Assembly: GCF_963921235.1 (NCBI RefSeq)
Contig: NC_086108.1
Span: forward strand, 85,562,001 to 85,626,000
Direction of reading: 5' to 3'
Length of the DNA stretch: 64,000 nucleotides
Source: Mobula hypostoma
Taxonomy: Eukaryota
Each line of letters opens with the position of its first letter. Position 1 is the stretch's first letter. Under the pieces are notes generated by a model that was not told the origin of the DNA, did no database searches, and saw only the letters and a program-made list of their open reading frames with translations. The position numbers were made by a program, and so were the translations under genes. Of the stretch, positions 8,641-29,884 are shown in pieces.

Positions 8641-10565
8641 AAGGTTCAAAGGGCAAAGTTTAAAGTAAATTTATTATCAAGGTACATATATGTCACCATT
8701 AACAACCCTGAGATTCGTTTTCTTGTGGGCATACTCAATACATCCAATAACCATAATAGAATTAATAAAAGATTGCCCCGGCAGAAATTACACCCAATGT
8801 GCAAAAGACCACAAACTGTGAAAATGCAAAAAGAAAGACAAAAAAAGTAGTAGTAATACTAATAATAAATGTAGAGAACATGAGATGAGGAGGCTTTGAA
8901 AGTGAGCCCATAGGGGCAAGTGAAGCTGAGTGAAGTTCTCTCATCTGGTTCAGGAGCCTGATGGTTGAGGGGTAATAATGGTTCCTGAACCTGGTGTTGT
9001 GAGTCCTGCAATTCCTTTCTTCCTGATGGCAGCAGCGAGAAGAGAACATGCCCTGGGTGGCAGGGTCCCTGTTAATGGATGCTGCTTTCCTGTGACAATG
9101 CTCCGTGTAGGTGTGCTCATTTCTGGGAAGGGCTTTACCTGCGATGAACTGGGCCATGTCCACTGCAGTTTGCAAGATTTTTCATTCAAGGAATTTGGTG
9201 TTTCTATACCAGGCTGTGATGCAGCCAGTCAATATACTCTCCACCACACACCTATAGAATTAGTCGAAGTTACAGATGTCACGCTGAATCTTTGCAAACT
9301 CCTAAGGAAGTAGAGGCACTGTTGTGCTTTCTTCCTAATTGCACGTACGTATTGGGCCTAGGACAGATCCTTTGACATGATAACACTGATAAATTTAAAG
9401 TCACTGATGAGGACTGGCTCATGGACCTCCGGTTTCCCTCCCCTGAAGTCAATAATCAGCTCCTTGGTCTTGCTAACTTAGAGTAGGAGGTTGTTGTTGT
9501 GACACCACCCGGCCAGATTTTCATTTTCCCTTCTATATGCTGATTTGTCACCACTTTAGATTTGGCCTACGTCACGGGTGTTGTCAGCAAACTTAAACCT
9601 GACTTTGGAGTTGTGCCTAGACTCACAATTATAAGTGTAAAGCAAGTCGTGCATGAGGCTAAGCACACAGCCTTGTGGTGCAACTGTGCTGATGGGGATT
9701 GTGGAGGAGATGTTGTTGCCAATCTGAACTGACTAGTGAGTAAATTGAGAATCCAATTGCACAAGGGTGTATTGAGGCCAAGGTCTTATGGCTTATTGAT
9801 TAGTTTTGAGGGGATGATAGCATTGAATGCCAAGGTGTAGTCAATAAAGAGCATGCTGAGGTTCATGTCTTTGTTGCCCAGATGTTCCAGGGTTGATTGA
9901 AGAGCCAATGAAATGCCATCTGCTGTGGACCTGTTGTGCCAGTAGGCAAATTGGAGTGAATTCAAGTTGCTTCTTGGGGAGGAATTGATATGTTTCATCA
10001 CCAAACTCTGAAAACGGTTCCTCCCTGTGGATGTGAGTGCAAAAGGCCGATAGTTACTGAGGCAGGTTACCATGTCGTTCTTAGGCGCCAGTATAATTGC
10101 AGCCTGCTTAAAGCATGTGGGTACCTCAGACTGCCAAAGCGAGGGGTTAAAGATATCAGTGAACACTCCAGCTAGTTGATGAGCACAGGTCTTTATTACT
10201 GAGCGAGGTACCCAGACTAGGCCGAATGCTTTCCATGGGTTCACCCTCATGAAATATACTCTCACGTTGGCCTCAGAGATTGAAATCACAGGATCATCAG
10301 GGGCTGTGGGAGTTTGTGATGGTTCTTCCATGTTTTGACGGCCAACGTGAGCATAGAATGCATTGAGCTCATCTGGAAGTGAAGCCCCTTTGTCACCTTC
10401 AGTATGTCACTTGATCAGCTTTCCAGATACAGCCAGAGGGATGGTAGCTTCACCTTGTAAGAGGTGATGGCACTCAAGCGCTGCCACAGCTGTCGAGCAT
10501 CCTTCATTGATTCAAGTTTAGTCTGGAATTGCCACTTCACCCATGAGATGGCTTTCCGGAGATCA
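8641..10565 (-). mobile_element. Rex1/Babar-clade non-LTR retrotransposon, 5'-truncated, frameshifted RT
   Basis: ORF 9786-10331 KTCAHQLAGVFTDIFN...NYRPFALTS...QFAYWHNRSTAD...MLFIDYTLAFNAIIPSKL; C-terminus TRFRNHYYPSTIRLLN; TTTGAAC-type tail. Confidence 0.92.
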
Positions 10566-12484: not shown

Positions 12485-15400
12485 AATTGGGATCTCTTGG
12501 GGGAAGTATGACCTGTTCAAAAAGGACAGGTTACACCTGAACCCGAAGGGGACCAATATCCTGGCGGGAAAGTTTAATAGAGCTGTTAGGGAGGGTTTAA
12601 ACTAATTTGGCAGCGGGATGGGAACCGGAATGACAGAGTGGAGGAAGGGGAAAACAGAAATAAATTTAAGATAGTGAGCAGTAAAGATGTCAGGAAAGAC
12701 AGGCAGGTGATGGGGCTAATTTGTAGCCATTGGGATGAGTTGCAGTGCAATAAAGTTGCAGTGAAATCAAAGCGAAAAGTAGCAAATACTGGTCTTAAGG
12801 TGTTATACTTAAATGCATGCAGCATAAGGAATAAGGTGGATGATCTTGTATTACAGCTACAGATTGGCAGGTATGATATTGTGGCCATCACTGAGACGTG
12901 ACTAAAGGATGCATGTCTCTGGGAACTGAACGTCCAAGGATACACGGTGTATCAGAAGGTTAGGAAGGTAGGCAGAGGGGGAGGCGTGGTTTTATTGGTA
13001 AGAAATGATATTAAATCATTAGAAAGAGGGGATATAGGATCAGAAGGTGCAGAATCTTTATGGGCTGAGCTAAGAAATCTCAGGGGTAAAAGGACCCTGA
13101 TGGCAGTTATTTATAGGCCTCCAAACAGCTGCAGTGATGTGGACTACAAATTACAACAGGAAATAGAAAAGACTTGTCAGAAGGGCAGTGTTATGATAAT
13201 TGTGGGGGATTTTAACATGTGAGTGGATTGGGAAAATCAGGTCGGCACTGAATCTCAAGTGAGAGAATATGTAGAATGTTTGCGAGATGGCTTTTTAGAA
13301 CAGCTTGTTGTTGAGCCCACTAGGGGATCAGCTGTACTGGATTGGGTATTGTGTAATGAACCGGAGGTGATTAGAGAGATTGAGGTGAAGGAACCCTTAG
13401 GAGACAGTGATCATAACATGATTGAGTTCACTGTGAAATTTGAAAAAGAGAAGCCGAAATCTGATGTGTCGGTGTTTCAGTGGAGTAAAGGGAATTACAG
13501 TGGCATGAGAGAGGAACTGGCCAAAGTTGACTGGAAAGGGACTCTGGCGGGAAAGATGGCAGAGCAGCAGTGGCTGGAGTTTATGCAAGAAATGAGGAAG
13601 GTGCAAGACAGGTATATTCCAAAAAAGAAGAAATTTTCAAATGGAAAAAGGATGCAACCATGGTTGACAGGAGAAGTCAAAGCCAAAATTAAAGCAAAGG
13701 AGAGGGCATGACTTCAGGATTGAAGGGCGCCCTTTCAGAACAGAAATGCGAAGAAATTTTTTTAGTCAGAGGGTGGTGAATCTATGGAATTTGTTGCCAC
13801 GGGCAGCAGTGGAGGCCAAGTCATTGGGCGTATTTAAGGCAGAGATTGATAGGTATCTGAGTAGCCAGGGCATCAAAGGTTATGGTGAGTAGGCGGGGCA
13901 GTGGGACTAAATAGGATAAAATGGATCAGCTCATGATAAAATGGCGGAACAGACTCGATGGGCCGAATGGCCTACTTCTGCTCCTTTGTCTTATGGTCTT
14001 ATACAAGGAAGCAAAAATTAGTGGGAATACAGAGGATTTGGAAGTTTTTAAAACCTTACAAAAAGAAATTGAGAAGGTCATTAAGGGGAAAAAGATTAAC
14101 TATGAAAGGAAGCTAGCAAATAATATCAAAGAGGATACTAAAAGCTTTTCCAAGTATATGAAGAGTAAAAGACAGGTGAGAGTAGATATAGGACCAATAG
14201 AAAATGATGCTGGAGAAATTGTAATGGGAGATAAGGAGATGGCAGAGAAACTGAACGAGTATTTTGCATCAGTTTTCACTGAGGAAGACATCAGCAGTAT
14301 ACCGGACACTTAAGGGTGGCAGGGAAGAGAAGTGTGCGCAGTCACAATTATGACAGAGAAAGTACTCAGGATGCTGAATAGTCTAAAGGTAGATAAATCT
14401 CCTGGACCAGATGGAATGCACCGCGTGTTCTGAAGGAAGTAGCTGAGGAGATTGCGGAGGCATTAGCGATGATCTTTCAAAAGTCGATAGATTCTGGCAT
14501 GGTTCCACAGGACTGGAAGATTGCAAATGTCACTCCGCTATTTAAGAAGGGGGCAAGGAAGCAAAAAGGAAATTATAGAACTGTTAGCTTGACATCGGTG
14601 GTTGGGAAGTTGTTGGAGTCGATTGTCAAAGATGAGGTTACAGAGTACCTGGAGGCATATGACAAGATAGGCAGAACTCAGCATGGATTCCTTAAAGGAA
14701 AATCCTGCCTGACAAACAATTTTTTGAAGAAATTACCAGTAGGCTAGACAAGGGAGTTGCAGTGGATGTTGTATATTTGGATTTTCAGAAGGCCTTTGAC
14801 AAGGTGCCACACATGAGGCTGCTTAACAAGATAAGAGCCCATGGAATTACAGGAAAGTTACATACGTGGATAGAGCGTTGGCTGATTGGCAGGAAACAGA
14901 GAGTGGAAATAAAGGGATCCTATTCTGGTTGGCTGCCGGTTACCAGTGGTGTTCCACAGGGGTCCGTGTTGGGGCCGCTTCCCTTTACATTGTACATCAA
15001 CGATTTGGATTATGGAATAAATGGCTTTGTTAAGTTTGCTGACAATACGAAGATAGGTGGAGGGGCCGGTAGTGCTGAGGAAATGCAGAGTCTGCAGAGA
15101 GACTTGGATGGATTGGAAGAATGGGCAAAGAAGTGGCAAATGAAATACAATGTTGGAAAGTGTATGGTTATGCACTTTGGCAGAAGAAATAAACGGGCAG
15201 ACTATTATTTAAATGGGGAAAGAATTCAAAGTTCTGAGATGCAATGGGACTTGGGAGTCCTCGTACAGGATACCCTTAAGGTTAACCTCCAGGTTGAGTC
15301 GGTGGTGAAGAAGGCAAATGCAATGTTGGTATTCATTTCTAGAGGAATAGAGTATAGGAGCAGGGTTGTGATGTTGAGGCTCTATAAGGCGCTGGTGAGA

Positions 15401-15961
15401 CCTCACCTGGAGTACTGTGGGCAGTTTTGGTCTCCTTATTTAAGAAAGGATGTGCTGACATTGGAGAGGGTACGGAGAAGATTCACTAGAATGATTCCAG
15501 GAATGAGAGGGTTAACATATGAGGAACGTTTGTCCGCTCTTGGACTGTGTTCCATGGAGTTTAGAAGAATGAGGGGAGACCTCATAGAAACATTTCGAAT
15601 GTTGAAAGGCATGGACAGAGTGGATGTGGCAAAGTTGTTTTCCATGATGGGGGAGTCTAGTACGAGAGGGCATGACTTAAGGATTGAAGGGCGCCCATTC
15701 AGAACAGAAATGCAAAGAAATTTTTTTAGTCAGAGGGTGGTGAATCTATGGAATTTATTGCCTCCGGCAGCAGTGGAGGCCAAGTCATTGGGTGTATTTA
15801 AGGGAGAGATTGATAGGTATCTGAGTAGCCAGGGCATCAAAGGTTATGGTGAGAAGGCGGGGGAGTGGGACTAAATGGGAGAATGGATCAGCTCATGATA
15901 AAATGGCAGAGCAGACTCGATGGGCCGAATGGCCGACTTCTGCTCCTTTGTCTTATGGTCT
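12485..15961 (+). mobile_element. CR1 LINE: ORF1 end plus nearly complete ORF2 (APE endonuclease + RT) with stops and frameshifts
   Basis: LYLNACSIRNK, AITET, IYRPPN, GDFN, SDHN (APE); NYRTVSLTS, YLDFQKAFDKVPH, GVPQGSVLGP, KFADNTK (RT); 3' UTR ending CTTTGTCTTATGGTC. Confidence 0.97.
13710..14002 (+). mobile_element. 293-bp CR1 3' fragment nested in ORF2 of a closely related CR1
   Basis: Highly similar to 15674-15961; removing it restores the frame AKERA-YKEAKISG. Confidence 0.93.
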
Positions 15962-28225: not shown

Positions 28226-28915
28226 CCTACACCATCTGCTATGTTCAGCAACTGTTAAAAATCTCCCAGTGAATGTCAGGAACCAAATTACAGTGTACTT
28301 TATCTGATATTCTTGCTTGTTTTGACTTAATTTTTGGTTTATAGTGTCTGAACTTTTCTTGAGCATTCAGTTATATTTAAAAAACCTACTAAAATTTTCT
28401 TCATTTGCAGAAGGAATTTATCAAAATGAAAATGAAGATTAGCTCAGTTGGTGTGGTTGGGTGGTGTCCTGGAAAATCTTAGCATACTTACCATGTTCTC
28501 ATGAGCATTGGCCTAAACTGATCAACCTTCCTTCATCCCATGAACTAACCTTGTGATCCTTCTCTGACATCTATTCGTATTCCCATTTGCCTAAATACTA
28601 GTGCAATAACAATTATTTATTTTACTGAGGATGCGTATAACCGTATTAATTCGTGCTATTATTAACTTACAAGGGAAATTTCTGCACTAATGTAGAATAG
28701 AACTGCATTGCTTGCAATAGACATTTATGTTATTGACTGGAAGGTTTCCTGTTGCTAATGCATTCTTAGGAAATGGAGTACTGTTTGTGCCACAGCTTTA
28801 ATTAATAGTACCCAAATCATTTTACAATGCAATATGGGGAATAGAAAGTTAAATTTGAAATGTAAAAAAAAGTTATTAGCAGTATTTTCATTTTTGTTCC
28901 TCTACAATTCTCTGT

Positions 28916-29100
28916 GGGGTGTCAGGGAGGGGTAGCACCTCTGTTGGGGGAACATGTTGCGTCCTCTTCAAGGCTGTTAGTCCACCTTTGGTCCCCACCT
29001 GGCACTCAGCTCTCTCCTGTGGCTCCTCGTAGCTGTTTGCATGCGACAGCGGCCACACTCCGGGCAACGGCCTCGACAAGCCGGCTAAACCAGGTGAGGG
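28916..29100 (+). ncRNA. HDV-like (delta-like) self-cleaving ribozyme fold
   Basis: P1 GGGGUGU 28916-28922 / ACACUCC 29055-29061; P2 29010-29020 / 29089-29100; P3 GGC 29021-29023 / GCC 29052-29054; L3 UCCUCGU 29024-29030; P1.1 GG 29062-29063; GCAA; P4 CGGC/GCCG; J4/2 GCUAA with catalytic-C equivalent at 29085. Confidence 0.85.
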
Positions 29101-29425
29101 TAGCCGATGGGTCTCAAAACTTCAGTGAGATAGAGAAGTGTCTATCCCAGTATGTGAAGACAGACTCTGGTGGATTGAGCGGACGAGACCAATGGAAGGT
29201 TCAATGGTCAAGAAGGTGGTCTCTGCAAGCATTGTGGAATGTGTAGAGTATGACAAGACACAAAAGATGTCCTGGTCGTCCACTGCGCCTAGTCCTATCT
29301 CCAGCCATCTGAACTCTGTCTTGCCACTGGATCCAGATGGGAATTGGGAAGAGAGAGTGAGGCTGATGCTGCACAACTTTCCTTCACTTAAATCCAAATC
29401 AAGCGCTAGTCTTGACACCATCATT

Positions 29426-29560
29426 AGCCGGCTGGTGGCATAGTGGCATCAGCGCTGGACTTTGGGGTGAGAGGTCCTGAGTTCAAATCTGGCCTGCTCC
29501 CTTGCACGCTTTCCATCCATGCTGGGTTGAGCATCGAGCTAGCAACTCGACCTCGTAAAG
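29426..29560 (+). mobile_element. Short tRNA-derived SINE inserted in the RTE-type element
   Basis: A-box TGGCATAGTGG, B-box GAGTTCAAATCT, short unique 3' part ending GTAAA. Confidence 0.75.
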
Positions 29561-29884
29561 AGTACTAATGGTGTCAAGGTCTTCATCGATGACGATGGAT
29601 GAACCTTATTTAAGAGCTAGAAGAAAACACGTAAAGAGTTACATTTTATGGATCTGATTGAATGTGCACAGCACAAAAGGTTCAGGATAAATAAAATCAC
29701 TCTTCTGGTTGATTTGACCTTTCTTCTGTGGGTGTCTGGTGCTGCACTGAGTGTTGCATGTTGCATGGCACTGTGAAGAGACTGCAAACCTCTCCCTTTA
29801 GGGATAAGTAAATATCCAGCTGCAGGTATGAGTGGAAGCTCAAACTTAATGTTATGCTGTGGTGCTCTGTCATTAGTATTTAGT

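Follow-up and report, generated by a model that had tools for sequence, protein, structure and literature searches.

The window analysed in this study is a stretch of 64,000 nt from Mobula hypostoma (NC_086108.1, positions 85,562,001 to 85,626,000), and a non-autonomous RTE retroposon lies on its forward strand at 28916-29606. At its 5' end the element carries an HDV-like motif, of which 29024-29054 form the L3/P3 part; the features of the motif and of the element body are listed in Table 1. Reverse-transcriptase fragments (PF00078) of other retroelements were seen elsewhere in the window at 14696-15871 (+) and 9789-10406 (-).

Table 1. Features of the HDV-like motif and of the RTE element body (window coordinates).
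Feature	Position	Strand	Remark
Place of the family's 9-nt leader (assigned P1 5' strand)	28907..28915	+	Window copy has flanking DNA here, leader absent
Structured J1/2 (P1.2-like) domain	28916..29008	+	MFE; similar arm fold in six lineages
J1/2 basal stem	28917-28926 with 28998-29007	+	Long arm beyond
J1/2-arm bulge, 5 nt, predicted L4 partner	28955..28959	+	C>T at 28958 in window copy gives a wobble
P2 5' strand	29012..29020	+	A>T mismatch at 29015 in window copy
P3 5' strand	29021-29023	+	Invariant in 12/12 distinct rows, partly by search design
L3 heptamer (29024-29030) and A 29031, eight L3 positions	29024..29031	+	Equivalents of HDV U20-U27
L3 insert, predicted hairpin	29032..29050	+	4-bp conserved base, 1-2 further pairs, 7-nt loop
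Invariant G between insert and P3	29051	+	Possible misfold by pairing with the U20 equivalent
P3 3' strand	29052-29054	+	
P3 3' (29052-54), P1 3' (29055-61), P1.1 GG (29062-63)	29052..29063	+	C>T at 29059 (P1 3') in window copy
J1.1/4, P4 (29068-71 with 29080-83), 8-nt L4	29064..29083	+	Double-sided changes in all 4 P4 pairs
L4, 8 nt; predicted bulge partner 29074-29078	within 29064..29083	+	
J4/2 with predicted catalytic C 29085, then P2 3' strand	29084..29098	+	C constant in six lineages
Rest of RTE 5' UTR-derived body	29105..29424	+	Common to copies and L157
Internal segment of ~140 nt, head presumed tRNA-SINE-like	29426..29565	+	Marks composite subfamily
RTE 3' tail	29566..29606	+	Likeness by eye to RTE-1_PSi 3' end

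A DNA search of the own genome returned 1,377 candidates. The best 39 other copies among these candidates were 95-96% identical, and 38/39 began at 28915-28916. The element was 559-562 nt long in 37/50 family-A loci, and the family-A copies carried ACA-repeat tails followed by a TSD; no TSD was found for the window copy. Where ordinary family-A copies pass from the 5' part to the 3' tail, the adjoining ends form an inverted repeat of ~8-11 bp, and in the window the arms of this repeat (29414-29424 and 29566-29577) have the internal segment between them. The fetched best hits of the internal segment (region set L028, L114, L130 and L301-L319) were joined to RTE 5' sequence upstream in 19/19 cases, while segment plus tail gave 5,063 first-look candidates, and the window copy belongs to that subfamily. 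The subfamily was amplified as a unit, so the head that we take to be SINE-like, in which ARAGORN found no tRNA, lies inside the element and not in front of it. Body and tail resemble by eye the UTR pieces of RTE-1_PSi and RTE-3_AMi in the accessible part of the Kojima 2018 supplement (PMC5786205), and therefore the element was read as a bipartite non-autonomous RTE; it consists of a 5' UTR and a 3' end only, with no ORF of at least 150 aa at the locus. The RTE clade was putatively assigned from the same likeness to RTE-1_PSi and RTE-3_AMi.

Clustering of 123 copies separated families A with 50, B with 21 and D with 15 members from an old family C, in which 10 clustered copies were joined by 8 singletons added by eye; a small family E (two pairs or singletons) was dropped from the analysis. 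A metagenome scan gave 44 matches, of which two were true homologues, L157 (74% over 503 nt) and L177 (71% over 305 nt), and the remaining 42 were not homologues. The six lineages compared below are thus A, B, C, D, L157 and L177, a set that may miss more distant own-genome families. In both outside homologues, the leader and the insert are present and an APE reading frame follows downstream. An APE domain (Pfam) was found behind the motif in L157, L177 and L034, and RT pieces were detected in L034 by tblastn. Short and autonomous RTEs alike start exactly with the motif, and a single ORF for APE followed by RT in the autonomous relatives, a short-repeat tail and TSDs were all found, as in an RTE.

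An APE protein search that used no ribozyme sequence was also performed, in which 150 of 2,140 candidates were scored and 50 loci, including 3 duplicates, were examined. Our own covariance model scored at least 76 bits in 25/34 APE-anchored loci of two RTE clusters, a set with 3 duplicate rows and with one hit (L209) that is a separate copy on the other strand. In a third, young RTE cluster, 0/16 loci scored above 30 bits with this model. The elements of the young cluster (L226-L241) have frames up to ~1,100 aa and share with the ribozyme-bearing elements the 5' UTR downstream of the ribozyme; their head consists of GC-rich tandem repeats in place of the ribozyme, an apparent swap for a promoter-like head. 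Another RTE lineage (L082 and L132-L148), found through PF20049, was rejected as a further long-L3 case since it had no similarity to the present element and no covariance-model hit. Its member L082 (G000:C36:131598500-131604500, minus) has a 1,018-aa frame with APE, RT and DUF6451 and a GAA tail. The 5' start of that lineage is a motif of ~115 nt, which by eye follows the domain order of a twister T-variant, as given in the accessible text of PMC8501958, without P1; no Rfam hit was obtained on 5 loci. With a pattern for further L4 versions, 9 sporadic copies and no additional lineage turned up in the own genome, the viral contigs gave 1 chance match and no APE relatives, and the prokaryote genomes gave 3 matches in bacterial or archaeal contigs that were judged from their titles to be chance.

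The P1, P1.1, P2, P3 and P4 helices could be formed as a nested double pseudoknot in the HDV order in all six lineages; in the window copy, P1 was formable only with the second repeat described below. Double-sided changes were found in 4/4 pairs of P4 and in 1/7 pairs of P1. The equivalents of U20, C21, C22 and G25, the catalytic C and the two A's after it (A77/A78 equivalents) were constant across the six lineages, and 3/8 L3 columns (positions 23, 24 and 26) varied. The motif has the U20 and G25 equivalents and a 3-bp P3, with the C21/C22 equivalents predicted to form P1.1, and in J4/2 the catalytic C is followed by N-A-A in every lineage. By analogy with HDV C75, C29085 would be the catalytic base. 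The search patterns fixed the P2/P3 bases and U20-C22 for A, B, C, L157 and L177, and not for the APE-anchored family D, and the invariance of P2/P3 is partly built in because of these patterns. A purine-initiated P1 of 6-7 bp at the RNA 5' end was found for the family, but not for the window copy; deviations within P1 are a C.A mismatch at position 7 in family D and an A at position 1 in the majority sequence of family C. The L3 does not close directly on P3 after 7-8 nt, and is 26-28 nt long in all six lineages. We therefore filed the motif as a variant and not as a plain HDV-like member. In the window, Rfam 15 gave 0 relevant models at the gathering score, and no Rfam ribozyme model was hit when E-values were allowed to reach 10 for 28800-29600 and 1 for 9 loci. 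By every sequence criterion except the L3 length, the motif would be an HDV-like RTE ribozyme.

The 5' strand of P1 was located with the family. The leader was matched at 7/9 bases or more in 37/46 family-A copies having a 5' end, and the first element base, mapped by TSDs of at least 9 bp, fell at -1..+3 of the leader in 18/23 copies. In L157, the leader forms 7/7 P1 pairs including a compensatory change from G-C to U-A, while a second repeat forms only 3/7. This second repeat is the first heptamer of the J1/2 domain (28916-28922), which repeats the P1 strand of the leader and pairs instead within the J1/2 basal stem in the MFE structure. On account of the TSD ends, the P1 pairing in L157 and the basal-stem pairing of the repeat, the leader was taken as the P1 5' strand, and cleavage is predicted just before its first G. 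The window copy does not contain the bases where the predicted cut would fall, a loss that the earlier note overlooked. Because the leader is lost and P2, P1 and the bulge carry the three changes given in Table 1, the window copy is probably dead as a ribozyme.

The window copy could instead be complete and cut at an alternative site, with the repeat at 28916-28922 as P1 and the RNA start 9 nt later. With the repeat, P1 can form completely (7 pairs) in A, B, C and L177, and 4/46 family-A copies match the leader at 4/9 bases or fewer, which would suit such a start. However, the J1/2 basal stem would have to open, 0/23 TSD-mapped ends lie at +10, and ordinary 5' truncation accounts for the same copies, so that we regard an alternative cut site as unlikely, although it is the strongest of the competing readings.

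The earlier note had described a hairpin inserted in L3 with P3 closing behind it at 29024..29054, and its coordinates proved exact and the insert real. It had also named absence of the hairpin from other copies as a result that would speak against it. The insert was present in 30/30 aligned copies, and an own-genome search in which only the flanks were fixed gave 3,342 exact matches with a long L3 (18-36 nt between the flanks) and 7 copies with a short L3 (3-9 nt between the same flanks), the spacings covered being 3-9 nt and 18-36 nt. The reversed-pattern controls for the L3-flank searches gave 0 matches. A private insertion in one copy was rejected in view of the 30/30 aligned copies and the 3,342 long-L3 matches. 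The 7 short-L3 copies are mutually unlike and resemble old family C, and they look like sporadic deletions. The insert is fixed in all sampled lineages, namely four own-genome families and two outside homologues, which bears out the suggestion of a distinct variant, here one of an RTE 5'-end lineage. Sequencing-run contigs from 8 coded organisms span the insert, and at thresholds of 10% and 5% no deletion inside it was listed; partial insert deletions occur in a few loose ends of these contigs.

The insert is 19 nt long in families A, C and D and 17 nt in B, L157 and L177, where one base fewer stands on each side of the loop (a symmetric indel). In 12 distinct real copies, every cell of its 4-bp base is paired (100%); 3 pairs never vary, 1 pair changes on one side, and no double-sided change was found. 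The fifth pair is U-A or U.G across the lineages. Folded alone, the insert gave a stem of 6 bp, the last pair being U.G, and a 7-nt loop at -5.2 kcal/mol, an energy at chance level (z -0.91; 36/200 shuffles fold as well), and the isolated family-A segment 29021-29054 preferred another fold in which L3 is paired with the insert. The hairpin is credited above chance because the insert is conserved across copies, and not because of its energy. We consider the L3 hairpin likely, on moderate support that does not include covariation. The insert does not replace position 27, as had been proposed: eight L3 bases, as in genomic HDV U20-U27, precede it and one extra G comes after, and therefore it stands behind position 27 and not in its place. 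As for its role, a structural strut, packed against the arm or supporting P3, would be the foremost candidate, at somewhat less than an even chance; a folding guide or brake would be clearly less probable, a handle for the RTE protein slightly less again, and neutral baggage least of all. The insert loop (29038-29044) contains a 6-nt palindrome in A, D and L177, a different one in L157 and none in B, which could close a 4-nt loop or permit dimer contacts. P3 can be extended to 6 bp in all six lineages by pairing 29018-29023 with 29052-29057, using bases of P2 5' and P1 3', and this longer helix is a possible folding intermediate or trap.

The extra G behind the insert may bear on activity. A U20.G29051 pair was predicted to be 2.4 kcal/mol more stable and is a possible misfold; in HDV, according to the available text of PMC1874588, the P3 stack is continued by a U20.G25 wobble, and this wobble would be lost to the U20.G29051 pair. 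The same text reports for HDV a loss of ~3,000-fold when G25A strengthens U20 pairing (PMC1874588). The motif could be a crippled or slow ribozyme, in which the hairpin stacks under P3 or G29051 takes U20, the fold being kept for another job (protein binding, 5' protection or translation) and a promoter setting the 5' end. Besides the predicted stability of U20.G29051, it is in keeping with such a reading that P2 and the base of the insert are more constant than pairing as such demands. Against it, the division between constant positions (20, 21, 22, 25, the catalytic C and A77/A78) and free ones (23 and 24) fits a selected active site, the element ends coincide with the predicted cut, and the motif-free young cluster (0/16 loci) fits ribozyme and promoter-like heads as alternatives to each other. 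We judge a crippled ribozyme marginally less probable than the alternative cut site.

The J1/2 arm carries a bulge of 5-6 nt placed before its terminal hairpin, and the bulge (28955-28959) was complementary to L4 (29074-29078) at 5/5 Watson-Crick pairs in 6/6 lineages. Relative to A/C/D, three compensatory double-sided changes were found at three positions, U-A to C-G at pair 3 in B, U-A to A-U at pair 1 in L157, and C-G to A-U at pair 4 in L177. Equally good label permutations amounted to 6/720, all of them swaps among the identical A, C and D, or to 1/24 for the four distinct versions. When 19,900 column pairs were scanned, the bulge:L4 helix ranked first of the 9 helices of at least 4 bp kept in all lineages, with 3 covarying columns versus 2 for P4; the insert stem is missing from this Watson-Crick-only list because of the U.G in L177. 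In the MFE structure of the arm itself, the bulge is fully open in A, C, D and L157 (4/6); its opening costs 0.6 kcal/mol in L177 and 1.3 kcal/mol in B. These statistics come from four distinct versions, two of which (L157 and L177) are single sequences, and the motif that anchors the bulge was picked after the data had been viewed; in a plain MAFFT alignment the bulges of L157 and L177 are out of register and 81.7% of cells pair. The majority sequences of families C and D were built with CpG-decay correction because the single copies have decayed, and an intact bulge pentamer was present in 1/18 family C copies. The complementarity predicts a third pseudoknot of 5-6 bp. This pairing, which the earlier note passed over, is a better supported novelty than the L3 hairpin.

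The ribozyme and the hairpin might both be real and the bulge:L4 match a product of chance, or the bulge might pair with the L3 insert. The independent lineages are few, and the pentamer of L4 recurs within the insert of A, C and D, so that in these families the bulge pairs about equally well with the 3' half of the insert. Such pairing was rejected as a general feature, since it fails in L157 and is not lineage-specific (54/720 and 5/24 permutations are as good), whereas L4 tracks every bulge change; we hold this reading to be a shade less probable than a crippled ribozyme. Least credible, and in our view improbable, is a register in which 29032-29034 close P3, so that L3 would have the ordinary length of 8 nt without an insert and the extra 20 nt would fall between P3 and the 3' strand of P1: the bases 29032-29034 can pair with P3 5' in 5/6 lineages (with one G.U) and would match the HDV loop length exactly, but for the nested part of the structure this register is 5.6-7.2 kcal/mol worse than the hairpin in L3 in all six lineages, it needs two G.U pairs in L177, it leaves the insert's invariant 3' base, G29051 and 29052-54 unexplained, and P1' normally comes straight after L3/P3 in the material available from PMC3774820.

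The tested ribozyme Agam-2-1 is linked to RTE elements. In the accessible text of Webb 2016 (PMC4908430), it resembles the present family in its double-pseudoknot core, long base-paired J1/2 and extended P2, while its L3, by our own reading of the supplement row, is 7 nt without an insert; a P1-P2 pinch was offered for Agam-2-1, in contrast to the J1/2:L4 pairing predicted here. The paired J1/2 domain gave Agam-2-1 a gain of almost 1,000-fold, and the same text states that, for HDV-like ribozymes, tertiary stabilisation through peripheral domains had yet to be proposed (PMC4908430). With genomic HDV, as far as described in the available parts of PMC1874588 and bioRxiv 2022.09.22.508989, the family shares the 8-base L3 (U20-U27), two G-C pairs in P1.1, J1.1/4 and the C second after P4; unlike the family, HDV is viral and has no L3 hairpin, a short J1/2 and a long P4. 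The HDV-like ribozymes of R2 also stand at a non-LTR 5' end, with a long J1/2 and the conserved L3 G (Eickbush 2013, PMC3774820, accessible part). However, the R2 P1 is often borrowed from 28S rRNA, the R2 P4 is variable or absent, and within that part the R2 L3 deviates only by altered spacing in jewel wasp, with no hairpin or L4 contact described. The bipartite non-autonomous RTEs RTESINE2, WALLSI3 and RTE-N2_Lch were given without a ribozyme structure in the portion of Kojima 2018 available (PMC5786205), and the window subfamily differs from them by its added internal segment, which we take to be tRNA-SINE-like. Neither the L3 hairpin nor a J1/2:L4 pairing was described in the available parts of bioRxiv 2022.09.22.508989, PMC11331408, PMC10879173, PMC8501958 and PMC9901934, nor in a wider literature search covering mostly titles and abstract openings; Ruminski 2011, Webb 2009, and Webb and Luptak 2011 may already show them.

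Taken together, the reading that we consider probable is an RTE 5' end whose RNA would fold as an HDV-like self-cleaving ribozyme with an L3 hairpin and a J1/2:L4 pairing. The element would be transcribed by read-through, the RNA would fold, and the ribozyme would then cut before the first G of the leader. The cut would define the RNA end, which would be copied by the RTE protein via target-primed reverse transcription. RTE ribozymes release elements from co-transcripts, according to the accessible parts of PMC6765202 and PMC5786205. The J1/2 arm would pinch P1 and P2 together, as measured for Agam-2-1, and may also clamp onto L4, giving a triple pseudoknot. With somewhat less assurance, and leaning only slightly in its favour, we propose a subclass of RTE ribozymes with a triple pseudoknot, in which the J1/2 arm would lie along the core and pair with L4 and the whole would be braced by the L3 hairpin.

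In HDV, the L3 forms part of the active site, and the additions known from the accessible literature are in J1/2 and P4, not in L3. A selected natural L3 hairpin, if true, would mean that the core tolerates a three-way junction at P3, and a base-paired J1/2:L4 contact would be a peripheral tertiary clamp of the kind that Webb 2016 called unproposed. We regard the motif as a likely variant of a known self-cutting RNA with heavier bracing. A triple pseudoknot, if true, would make it a natural HDV-like ribozyme with peripheral loop-type tertiary activation, as in hammerheads, and the subclass would be invisible to current Rfam models. Both features would alter the search descriptors and may uncover many more animal ribozymes, and the ribozyme reading would account for the sharp 5' ends of thousands of genomic copies.
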